Part shown: one piece after another, positions 14,203-50,839 of the stretch
Numbering within the stretch: the stretch's first letter is position 1
Layout of the letters: each line of letters opens with the position of its first letter
Origin: an uncultured Schleiferiaceae bacterium
GTDB lineage: Bacteria; Bacteroidota; Bacteroidia; Flavobacteriales; Schleiferiaceae
Length of the DNA: 64,000 bases
Assembly (NCBI GenBank): GCA_963974215.1
Contig: CAXBBL010000010.1
Location: forward strand, 1-64,000
Reading direction: 5' to 3'
Position numbers and translations under genes: made by a program
The notes under the pieces: model-generated
The model's input: only the letters and a program-made list of their open reading frames with translations
What the model was told of the DNA's origin: nothing
Database searches by the model: none

Positions 14203-14259
14203 AACGTGAACTCGACTATTAACAAAGGGTCTGAGGCCTGATTTTACGTCGAATACACC
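14203..14259. repeat. Mini-palindromic relative of the MITE-like repeat (terminal module only)
   Basis: aacgtgaactcgac followed by the inverted left-end module gggtctgaggcctgattttacgtcgaatacacc. It matches the termini of the full copies at 41733, 48325 and 50554. Confidence 0.55.
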
Positions 14260-14330
14260 TTATTAAATAATGAAAAAAGCGGCCTCATTTTAACATGAAG
14301 ACCGCTTTTCTTATATGGTAAGTACCTCAA

Positions 14331-40809: not shown

Positions 40810-41556
40810 TTATGCTGCCACCTTTTTCTTAGAAGAAACGGCAATGGAATAAACCACTAGGCCAAAACCAATTTTATTTATCGCATCTGCGATATTGTAA
40901 AATAAGTCCACGTTGCTAGACTCCCAGCCTAAACCAGTGTTTAACCAGCCTCCAGGCATACACATATATCCAATCGGATAGATGGCCCAACCTACTAGAA
41001 CAAACCAACCTAAAGTCCGCACACCTGTCTTCACAGATTCGTTGCCACTTTTAGCCGCCAACTTTGCTACTTCACCATACCAGGCTGTATACAAAATGTA
41101 TAAATAGCCCAATGTTGACAGGAAGCCCCACAATACGGAGTGACTTGTGCTACCACCTTCTGGGTTGAAAGCTTCCCCTATGTAGCCAGTTACCAGCATC
41201 CACACTGATGCGAAAATCAGCTTCCATAATAAGCCGAGTTTGGCTCCCGCGGCTTTGGTCAGCAAATAAAATTCAACGCACATTAACGGAACCGTAAGAG
41301 TCCAGTCTATGTAACGCAATGCCGTTGGATTTTCGCCTGTAGCAACGTAATAGTCCCTCATATAATAATAATGGACTGCAGCGATGCCGGTGATTAACCC
41401 CGATACTAGGAGAGAAAGCTTCCACTTTTCATCTACACTACCACGCTCAAAAAAGAAAAAGACTGAGGCCGCTAACATTGCCATATACCCCGTAAAAAAG
41501 GTAAAAGCGATAGGATCGTCCTTTGGAATAACGAGTACATCTAACAACATAGTCAA
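40810..41556 (-). CDS. Proteorhodopsin (light-driven proton pump, DTE motif, Met at tuning position 105)
   Basis: 248 aa. Seven TM helices. RYIDWTLTVPLMCVEFY corresponds to PR RYIDWLLTVPLLICEFY: the D97 acceptor and E108 donor are conserved, and position 105 is M, as in green-absorbing flavobacterial PRs. The retinal Lys lies in ADAINKIGFG. Confidence 0.9.
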   Translation of the reverse strand: MTMLLDVLVIPKDDPIAFTFFTGYMAMLAASVFFFFERGSVDEKWKLSLLVSGLITGIAAVHYYYMRDYYVATGENPTALRYIDWTLTVPLMCVEFYLLTKAAGAKLGLLWKLIFASVWMLVTGYIGEAFNPEGGSTSHSVLWGFLSTLGYLYILYTAWYGEVAKLAAKSGNESVKTGVRTLGWFVLVGWAIYPIGYMCMPGGWLNTGLGWESSNVDLFYNIADAINKIGFGLVVYSIAVSSKKKVAA

Positions 41557-41732
41557 TCAATTTTAATGTTAATTTATTGTTAAACATGACTTAAATGGTT
41601 TTGTTTAAGTTTTACTCAAGAATATTAAACAAAAACTTGTGAAAGAATTTCCAAAGCCCGCAAACCCCTCACTCCGGCTCGAAAAGAGCCGATTTGCTGT
41701 CTCAACATTTTTCCTAGTATTTTCAGTAAATT

Positions 41733-41921
41733 AACGTGAGTTCGACGTAAAGTTAGGCCTCAGACCTCTAGTAAATAGTGGGTTTCAAGCCGAAGCAGGG
41801 AAGCAATAGCGGGCTATTGTGAGCTGCTGAGGCGTGGAAAACCGCTTTTTAGAAGGGGCCTAAACGGATTTTCCAATAAAAATGAAAATCTGAGGCTCTA
41901 ATTTATTGTCGAATTCACGTT
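41733..41921 (+). repeat. MITE-like repeat, copy A (189 bp, ~35-bp imperfect TIRs)
   Basis: Begins aacgtgagttcgacgtaaagttaggcctcagacc and ends gaggctctaatttattgtcgaattcacgtt. The internal hairpin CAATAGC-GG-GCTATTG is conserved. Near-identical to the copies at 48325 and 50554. Confidence 0.8.
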
Positions 41922-42265
41922 AAATTATTACTAATCCACAATTACACTTGGCTGCTTTAGAAAAAATAGAAGCTGTTCTACAGAGCACACGGCTTGACAA
42001 GGGCTAGTCACCAGGAGTGAGCTTGTTTTCCATTTCATTCTTATACCTCCTTACATCCGCTGGTTTTCTAGCCAGTACTTTATCGGCATTTACCAACAAT
42101 TAAATGGAGGCGGTTTTTCGCAAATATTCTTACTTAGTTTTCGATTTTAGCATTTCGCCCTTGCTAAAAATTAGGCTTTACGCGATAATGCTTGGCGTTT
42201 ACATATTGCTGCTAGGTCTTGAGCCATTTTTGGACATCTTGAGCCAAATCTGAAAAACATACCCT

Positions 42266-44295: not shown

Positions 44296-44383
44296 CTGGA
44301 AATATAAATTTCCGCCATTGATACCTTTCCCCTTTTCCAAATTAAGGTGATATGGACAATAATTACAACCTGAAATCGATTTA

Positions 44384-44463
44384 AAACTAGGCCTCAGACC
44401 TCTTATTATTTGGGGTTCTTTAGCCGAAGTGGTGAAGCAAGAGCGGGCCATATGACCGAAGCA
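44384..44463 (+). repeat. Degenerate internal fragment of the MITE-like repeat (no TIRs)
   Basis: aaaactaggcctcagacctctt...tagccgaagtggtgaagcaagagcgggccatatgaccgaagc aligns with the interior of copies A-C. Confidence 0.5.
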
Positions 44464-48035: not shown

Positions 48036-48293
48036 TTAGGTGCTTTCGCAAGATGGCGTAGAAAACCACTGTTTTCAAAAAACAATTTATAGGTGCTTCA
48101 TGCTAAATCTCCGATAACAATTCATCTTTGAATTGATCTTAAATGTCAGACCTACTCTTAAACGAACACATTCGGCCCTTAATCGAATTTAAAAGGATAA
48201 GCCCTTAAATTGAAAGATATTTGAGCATCGAAAAAGGGAAAACCTTTAAGGTAAGCAACATGTCCCTATCTATACCCCTCTATACAGAGAAAG

Positions 48294-48322
48294 ATCCTCG
48301 CCCAAAAGCGAGGATTTTTTTT
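48294..48322 (+). terminator. Orphan rho-independent terminator with no annotated gene upstream
   Basis: atcctcgc-ccaaaa-gcgaggat followed by T7. It sits 2 bp before MITE copy B. The preceding ~260 bp contain no ORF longer than 23 codons. Confidence 0.6.
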
Positions 48323-48324
48323 AC

Positions 48325-48513
48325 AACGTGAGTTCGACGTAAAATTAGGCATCAGACCTCTTGTAAATAGTGGGTTTCAAGCCGAAGCATTGAAGCAATA
48401 GCGGGCTATTGTGAGCTGCGGAGGCGTGGAAAGTCGCTTTTCAGAAGGGGCCTCAACGGATTTTCCAATAAAAATGAAAATCTAAGGCTCTAATTTATTG
48501 TCGAATTCACGTT
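48325..48513 (+). repeat. MITE-like repeat, copy B (189 bp)
   Basis: Same TIRs (aacgtgagttcgac ... gtcgaattcacgtt). Roughly 90% identical to copy A by eye. Confidence 0.8.
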
Positions 48514-50006: not shown

Positions 50007-50555
50007 ATGGATGAAAACAAAATCCCTTCAAGCCTTTATGCCGAAGATAATCAGCAAGCTCACCAGCATTGTAAAATTTGCGGGGTAAACCTACTTGAAG
50101 TTGATACCTACGGCATTCAAAAAGTTTATAAAAACTATCCTGATCAAGAGGAAGCTCAGGTTCTTTTTGACTTTGCTCTTTGCATGCCTTGCATGGAAAG
50201 TGCCCGAGCGGAACTTAGCCAAGAATCTCGTCAAAGGATTGATTTGTTTATGCGAGAAAAAATGATGGATTTAGCTCTAGCTGGTATCAGCCCTAGTGAA
50301 AGATACCACAATCACCAGTGTACTTTAAGTGGAAAAGATCTTAATGAAGCCCATGACTATCAAGTTATTGCTATCTGCCAAAGCGATAATTTGGTGGAGA
50401 GCCCTATCTACATAAGTGATGTTATTTTAGATGAAATACAAGAACTACTTTCTGCGAAAAGTAGAGATGAGTTAGACCGCTTTACTGAAAACAATCTCGA
50501 TTGGCCGCCCGAACTAAAAGCTTTGATAAAACAAGGTGACTGGCTGCCTATTTAA
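50007..50555 (+). CDS. Zinc-ribbon (CxxC...CxxC) protein of unknown function
   Basis: 182 aa. CKICGVN...CMPCMESA forms a Cys4 cluster. The stop codon overlaps the first bases of MITE copy C. Confidence 0.5.
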   Translation: MDENKIPSSLYAEDNQQAHQHCKICGVNLLEVDTYGIQKVYKNYPDQEEAQVLFDFALCMPCMESARAELSQESRQRIDLFMREKMMDLALAGISPSERYHNHQCTLSGKDLNEAHDYQVIAICQSDNLVESPIYISDVILDEIQELLSAKSRDELDRFTENNLDWPPELKALIKQGDWLPI

Positions 50556-50816
50556 CGTGAGTTCGACGTAAAATCAGGCCTCAGACCTCTTGTAAATAGT
50601 GGGTTTCAAGCCGAAGCAGCGAAGCAATAGCGGGCTATTGTGAGCTGCTGAGGCGTGGAAAGCCGCTTTTTAGAAGGGGCCTAAACGGATTTTCCAATAA
50701 AAATGAAAATCCTGCATCTAGCTCATTTGCTGTAGCCCGCTACAGCTGCACGATCCAGACTAGTCTTTTCCTTCCATTGAAAATCTGAGGCTCTAATTTA
50801 TTGTCGAATTCACGTT
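50554..50816 (+). repeat. MITE-like repeat, copy C (263 bp, carries a 74-bp internal insertion)
   Basis: Same ends as copies A and B. The extra segment cctgcatctagctcatttgctgtagcccgctacagctgcacg... contains the palindrome gctgtagc-ccg-ctacagc. Confidence 0.8.
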
Positions 50817-50839
50817 ATTTAAGATCGCAATTATGTTGC

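Follow-up and report, generated by a model that had tools for sequence, protein, structure and literature searches.

The closest described relatives of the repeat family reported here are MITEs of other Bacteroidota. In Porphyromonas gingivalis, the left terminal inverted repeat (TIR) of MITE239 reads ACGTGAGTTCGATATAAAGGAA and the right TIR of MITE700 reads TCGAACTCACGT, with ACGTCAGTTCGA given for ISPg3 (PMC4596501, Table 2). ISPg3 was listed as a member of the IS5 family in the same publication (PMC4596501); it is now named IS195 (PMC5771137), and IS195/ISPg3 has been annotated as belonging to the IS982 family (PMC13305171). In Cardinium cOegib, MITECca01, an element of about 240 bp that stems from ISCca4 (IS982 family) and carries no transposase, has inverted repeats very similar to those of IS982-family ISs and is considered to depend on intact parental copies for its maintenance (PMC9769881).

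The MITE found in the window, by which we mean the whole stretch of 64,000 nucleotides that was analysed, resembles MITE239 and MITE700 in that it occurs in the same phylum, has a nearly identical terminus, is noncoding and shares with an IS only the TIRs. The hosts differ, being oral Bacteroidales for the P. gingivalis elements and marine Flavobacteriales for the window MITE, and the sizes implied by the names MITE239 and MITE700 are 239 and 700; this comparison is one of termini alone. MITECca01, which is likened to the window MITE by its description, is likewise an element of Bacteroidota with IS982-type inverted repeats and without a transposase. It retains short stretches of the parent IS inside its inverted repeats, which supports an origin by deletion, whereas the window MITE matches the IS over only about 18–20 terminal bases; its host is an intracellular symbiont, whereas that of the window MITE is a free-living marine bacterium. 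Correia elements of Neisseria and RUP elements of Streptococcus pneumoniae are about 100–300 bp in length, possess TIRs as well as target-site duplications (TSDs), and are present in many intergenic copies. MITEs of this type form size classes through internal deletion and have the potential to form long hairpins, and regulatory roles have been shown for Correia elements (promoters, RNase III sites and IHF sites). They duplicate TA and are associated with other transposase families, whereas the window MITE has a TSD of 4–5 bp and IS982 termini. A limited literature search revealed no description of this MITE family, or of MITEs in Schleiferiaceae or Owenweeksiaceae. The repeat is thus a new family within a known kind, the IS982-terminus MITE of Bacteroidota.

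A BLAST search of the window with the element returned exactly five homologous loci, the number given in a preliminary description of this DNA, with the extents listed in Table 1 except that the match to the smallest copy covered positions 14207–14261. The coordinates and shared ends previously assigned to the three main copies were borne out: all three start with AACGTGAGTTCGAC, finish with GTCGAATTCACGTT and align end to end. The TIRs, described earlier as 14–35 bp in length, consist of 14 bp with one mismatch and extend imperfectly to ~35 bp. A search with the 14-mer that allowed up to three mismatches gave 10 matches in the window, compared with 2.66 ± 1.53 (maximum of 7) in shuffled sequences. 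The small copy downstream of murF, which had been placed at 14203–14259, is present and extends to 14261. The copies are, as had been stated, intergenic and noncoding, but they do not all lie in one orientation, given that this small copy is inverted and belongs to subfamily B. The fragment that had been called TIR-less starts at 44367 and does have a terminus, albeit a decayed one. The three main copies are also flanked by TSDs, which the preliminary description had missed.

Table 1. Copies of the MITE family in the 64-kb window
Feature	Position	Strand	Remarks
Full-length 263-bp MITE, subfamily A	50554..50816	+	TSD ATTT at 50550–50553 and 50817–50820
189-bp derivative, subfamily A	41733..41921	+	TSD AAATT at 41728–41732 and 41922–41926
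189-bp derivative, subfamily A	48325..48513	+	Short 3-bp duplication TAC on each side
59-bp mini-MITE, subfamily B	14203..14261	-	Left ~47 bp joined to the right terminus at ATAGT microhomology; termini slightly decayed
Decayed remnant of a subfamily-A copy, truncated to the left ~85 bp	44367..44451	+	Degenerate terminus AACCTGAAATCGAT

With regard to the surroundings of these copies, the first two bases (AA) of the 263-bp copy finish the TAA stop codon of an upstream ORF of 182 amino acids (50007–50555). The 189-bp copy at 41733 is located between divergent genes, at a distance of 177 bp upstream of the start codon of a rhodopsin gene (40810–41556, minus strand) to its left, the product of which is bacteriorhodopsin-like (Pfam PF01036, 146.6 bits). 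Directly upstream of the 189-bp copy at 48325 is a terminator-like hairpin with a T-run (GATCCTCGCCCAAAAGCGAGGATTTTTTTT, about 48290–48322), which is located downstream of a DUF4842 gene and is conserved in relatives. The 5' portion of a 16S rRNA gene occupies positions 1–946 (minus strand) of the window, the genome being that of a member of the Bacteroidota, and one protein of the window has an identical counterpart encoded on a TARA Oceans scaffold of 338 kb (ERZ2783015 scaffold_56).

To describe the family beyond the window, we scanned one genome per species with a degenerate pattern built from the first 33 bases of either end. The pattern was found in more than 92 blocks of 8 kb among the matches listed, nearly all of them from MAGs of the Schleiferiaceae/Croceimicrobium type: JAGYKI01 (Schleiferiaceae M30B63), CAXBOS01 (Schleiferiaceae), PZPB01 ("Bacteroidetes bacterium") and CBFHVV01 (Croceimicrobium). 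NCBI places Croceimicrobium in the Flavobacteriales, family Owenweeksiaceae, and the records of the scanned MAGs are labelled Schleiferiaceae. BLAST identified at least 73 homologous loci in M30B63, at least 20 in PZPB01, at least 13 in CAXBOS01 and at least 4 in CBFHVV01, so that the element occurs at least 110 times in the 8-kb blocks of these four MAGs. The 263-bp element gave no match in a search of plasmids, and viral contigs also yielded no match to the element.

Among the 53 copies with both strict termini, the commonest length was 263 bp, with 25 copies being of exactly this length and 36 falling between 261 and 265 bp; shorter classes of 188/189, 158–162 and 59 bp recurred. Given that 263 bp is the most frequent length, the canonical form of the family is that represented by the copy at 50554–50816, and the 189-bp copies of the window are derivatives. 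The latter have lost 74 bp located between a pair of GAAAATC direct repeats, and the 189-, about 160- and 59-bp forms are internal-deletion derivatives. All of these lengths, from 263 to 59 bp, lie within the range that defines a MITE (about 50–1000 bp, noncoding). Subfamily A, the window type, and subfamily B differ by about 15%; the interior of ~230 bp is about 83–85% identical between the two and was found across several genera. Subfamily A contains no ORF of 20 or more amino acids that begins with ATG, and a 37-amino acid ORF in subfamily B is not conserved.

The 59-bp form, which comprises little more than the two termini and about 30 bp, recurs with different flanking sequences in at least two genomes (2799–2857 of block L016, 1722–1780 of L064 and 7049–7107 of L076). 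Its TSDs are perfect in L064 (AAGTT) and L076 (AAAT) and imperfect in L016 and in the window copy. Because it has TSDs of its own at different sites, the 59-bp form seems able to move by itself and to constitute a very small transposition substrate.

Insertion of the element left a clear signature. Perfect TSDs of 4–5 bp abutted the termini in 51 of 75 nonredundant copies, compared with 8.2% in a flank-swap control in which the flanks of different copies were paired. A TSD was absent from 15 of the 75 copies, and the window copy at 48325–48513 has only the atypical 3-bp duplication. In the 4-bp class, the base preceding the TSD was T in 33 of 34 copies, the first and last bases of the TSD were A (31/34) and T (29/34), respectively, and the following base was always A (34/34). 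The target is thus T/AWWT/A for the 4-bp class, with the slashes marking the ends of the duplicated bases; that of the 5-bp class is TA-NNN-TA. Copies 1 and 3 of the window (those at 41733 and 50554, with copy 2 being that at 48325) are situated at T/AAATT/A and T/ATTT/A, respectively. These data fit both a 4–5 bp TSD with the termini AACGTG/CACGTT and a 6–7 bp TSD with the termini ACGTG/CACGT.

Orthologous contigs provided a more direct view of the copy at 50554–50816. Gene order is conserved in these contigs, and the histidine kinase they encode is 91% (L179 and L182) or 75% (L183) identical to that of the window; the genes around copies 2 and 3 are also arranged in the same order in a Croceimicrobium MAG. 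The window reads CCTATTT, then the 263-bp element, then ATTTAAG, whereas the empty site CCTATTTAA is found in two relatives exactly at the place of the insertion. L179, L182 and L183 all lack the insertion and have just one ATTT, bounded by T and A, at this site; the ortholog of the 182-amino acid ORF ends with ...CCTATTTAAA (L179) or ...CCTATTTAAG (L183) and is followed by a short intergenic spacer. These orthologous empty sites are direct proof of insertion. The corresponding position for copy 2 in L179 (about 2950–3000) is not a clean empty site: it holds a decayed sequence, AAGCCTGAGTACGATTAAAATCGGGC, that resembles the left end of the MITE, which suggests an older insertion that has since decayed or been replaced. 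We therefore set this site aside as uninformative.

None of the 50 copies with ORFs on both sides was located inside an ORF of 100 or more amino acids. Many copies abut stop codons, and 20 of the 50 lie between convergent genes. This intergenic distribution with its bias toward the 3' ends of genes is attributable to the frequent coincidence of T/AWWT/A sites with stop codons and gene 3' ends, and intergenic placement is what would be expected from a TA-rich, stop codon–like target together with selection against gene disruption.

The window itself contains no IS982 transposase. A relaxed search for termini separated by 0.6–4.5 kb identified, in a MAG that also carries the MITE, an element of 797 bp (3933–4729 of L049) with the termini AACGTGAGTTCGAT and AATGTGAGTTCGTT, a TSD of AATT and a frameshifted transposase. 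The conceptual transposase scored 140.7 bits against the NCBIfam model for IS982 (NF033520), for which the cut-off is 130. This pseudogene was the sole IS copy detected among the MITE-bearing MAG blocks. Two longer candidates for an autonomous element (1030–5371 of L006 and 1436–5571 of L034) were rejected because each proved to consist of separate MITEs with ordinary genes between them.

Intact relatives of the L049 transposase are 298 amino acids in length and 79% identical to it, contain the domains PF01609 and PF13612, and bear the NCBI name IS982 family. An intact IS of 1,021 bp with a perfect 18-bp TIR, AACGTGAGTTCGATATAA, is present at positions 1030–2050 of L097 and also in L093. A metagenome scan with the transposase revealed 80 loci with identities of 54–82% in marine, gut, rumen and digester samples. 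For 74 of 85 IS loci, the two termini were identified at a spacing of 950–1150 bp, and nearly all of them read AACGTGAGTTCGA; in the ISs of L098 and L108, 18 of 18 bases are identical to the left end of the MITE. Perfect TSDs of 4–6 bp were apparent at 25 of 67 distinct IS sites, compared with 13% in the control, and the bases flanking these TSDs were T (22/28) and A (24/28), the same as those that flank the TSDs of the MITE. Contig L095 carries both an intact IS and a MITE segment that is 97% identical to subfamily A. Comparison of the MITE interior with the IS revealed no similarity beyond about 18–20 terminal bases. The MITE shares only its termini with the IS and is not visibly derived from it by internal deletion, as opposed to having captured its termini.

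Other MITEs with the same type of terminus were detected in two blocks from a Prolixibacteraceae MAG, one of 55 bp (2216–2270 of L018) and one of 150 bp (1180–1329 of L040). Both have AACGTGAGTTCGA-type termini and the same type of TSD, and their interiors are unrelated to that of the window family; we therefore rejected them as members of that family and consider them to be different MITEs with the same terminus. The 150-bp element is flanked by the TSD ATTT, and its insertion point coincides exactly with the stop codon of a long ORF, which ends with TAT ATT TAA. Given that the same terminus is combined with unrelated interiors, this IS982 clade has repeatedly acquired nonautonomous partners across Bacteroidota.

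We estimate a probability of about 93% that the repeat is a MITE that lacks its own transposase and is mobilised in trans by an IS982-family DDE transposase encoded elsewhere. A nonautonomous element moved by a transposase encoded elsewhere had already been proposed in the preliminary description, and the copy number, TSDs, empty sites and IS982-family IS termini now support this proposal. A low copy number, the lack of TSDs and the lack of a TIR-matching IS had been named as findings that would speak against a MITE. The suggested search of relatives instead uncovered many copies with clear TSDs of 4–5 bp, and the suggested search for a transposase whose IS has a matching TIR led to the IS982-family clade, which shares both the terminal 13–18 bp and the insertion signature of the MITE. 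We infer from these shared features that a transposase of this clade moves the MITE, and the chemistry of the reaction is likewise proposed. The transposase would recognise the terminal 13–18 bp (AACGTGAGTTCGA followed by C or T) common to the MITE and to the ~1.02-kb IS982-family clade of Bacteroidota. Staggered cuts at AT-rich T/AWWT/A sites would then give rise to the 4–5 bp duplication on integration. The 263-bp interior, unrelated to the IS, is predicted to fold as a long hairpin, and the derivatives of 189, about 160 and 59 bp would have arisen by deletion between short direct repeats and then continued to transpose.

The folding of the element raises the question of whether the repeat might instead be a duplicated gene whose product is a small structured RNA, or an RNA element that acts in cis, with the inverted ends serving as a closing helix. 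The predicted folding energy of a 189-bp copy is −84.2 kcal/mol (z = −8.8) and that of the 263-bp copies is about −100 kcal/mol, and at two base pairs both partners differ between subfamilies A and B. Strong folding is nevertheless to be expected, because any long inverted repeat must fold. The covariation term of the consensus fold is just −0.43 kcal/mol, both-sided change affects 5 of 65 pairs, and the two well-populated covarying pairs each reflect a single A/B event. For one 189-bp copy the plus strand folds better than the minus strand (−84 versus −66 kcal/mol), but over 34 full-length copies this asymmetry disappeared (−105.0 versus −97.8 kcal/mol for subfamily A, −98.5 versus −98.0 kcal/mol for subfamily B), and the notion of a strand-specific RNA was therefore rejected. 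Rfam 15 gave no match at the gathering score, and at E ≤ 10 only chance matches to eukaryotic miRNA and lncRNA models. Orientation with respect to neighbouring genes was unbiased, with 8 copies being codirectional, 12 antidirectional, 20 between convergent genes and 10 between divergent genes; a terminator role was likewise discarded, with no orientation bias relative to flanking ORFs and with scans of the consensus for promoters and terminators remaining at background. Given that an RNA gene also leaves the TSDs, the empty sites and the termini shared with an IS unexplained, we regard this reading as very unlikely. The MITE may nonetheless be transcribed, or may have been co-opted at a later stage.

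Two further explanations concern the mode of spread, and we attach next to no weight to either. REPs are imperfect palindromes of about 20–40 bp that lack TSDs and occur in clusters or doublets. REP/BIME-like extragenic palindromes spread by a RAYT (an IS200/IS605-like tyrosine-HUH enzyme) or by recombination would, like the window repeats, be intergenic and palindromic and often be found at the 3' ends of genes. The units described here, however, measure 263 bp and have TIRs of 14–35 bp and TSDs of 4–5 bp, they end in the same termini as a DDE IS, and single insertions are precisely absent from orthologous sites. The preliminary description had offered a REP/BIME-like repeat and a small RNA as its alternatives, and neither gained support. 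An IS630/Tc1-mariner–type transposase that duplicates TA would define the element as ACGTG...CACGT flanked by TA, and window copies 1 and 3 can indeed be read as TA/ACGTG...CACGT/TA. The census of 75 copies instead revealed a variable TSD of 4–5 bp (or 6–7 bp, TNNNNA with the outer A/T), not simply TA, and the ISs with these termini encode transposases of the IS982 rather than the IS630 family. A TA-duplicating IS630-type MITE was thus rejected on the basis of both the TSDs and the identity of the IS.

A second type of mobile element was encountered at the MITE terminus. Nested mobile elements are present at 274–3140 of L094, at 1–2180 of L095 and in L096. There, an IS110-family element interrupts the TIR of a MITE copy at ...TCGAACTCA/GTTCCTCTATGAGCG.... 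The interrupting element contains DEDD_Tnp_IS110 and Transposase_20 ORFs and has in turn been divided by the intact IS982-family IS of 1,021 bp. The junction falls at the same TIR position in two different MITE copies. One of these, in L094, is minus-oriented and 81% identical and has the junction at its "left" end; the other, in L095, is 97% identical and has it at its "right" end. In L094, the element's right junction is not clean. The recurrence of the same position in two copies suggests that the IS110-type element targets the AACGTGAGTTCGA terminus. Two bolder ideas strike us as improbable: that the conserved, hairpin-rich interior of the MITE is a functional module, for example a structured RNA that is transcribed or a sequence with a regulatory or insulating role that is carried to the ends of genes, and, separately, that the MITE/IS terminus is a programmed target of an IS110-family element of the bridge-RNA type.

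The conceptual gain is small, given that same-terminus MITEs of the IS982 type are known in Porphyromonas and that an IS982-derived MITE is known in Cardinium. The analysis does provide an annotation for an abundant and previously unannotated repeat in marine Flavobacteriales of the Schleiferiaceae/Croceimicrobium type, and the repeat accounts for contig breaks and for assembly problems caused by repeats in MAGs of this group. Insertions of the MITE are also strain-level markers. To our knowledge, the chemistry of IS982 transposition is poorly characterised, and the 1,021-bp IS together with substrates of 59–263 bp constitutes a defined transposase-substrate pair for this family, in which the 59-bp mini form with its own TSDs would define a very small sequence that is sufficient for mobility.
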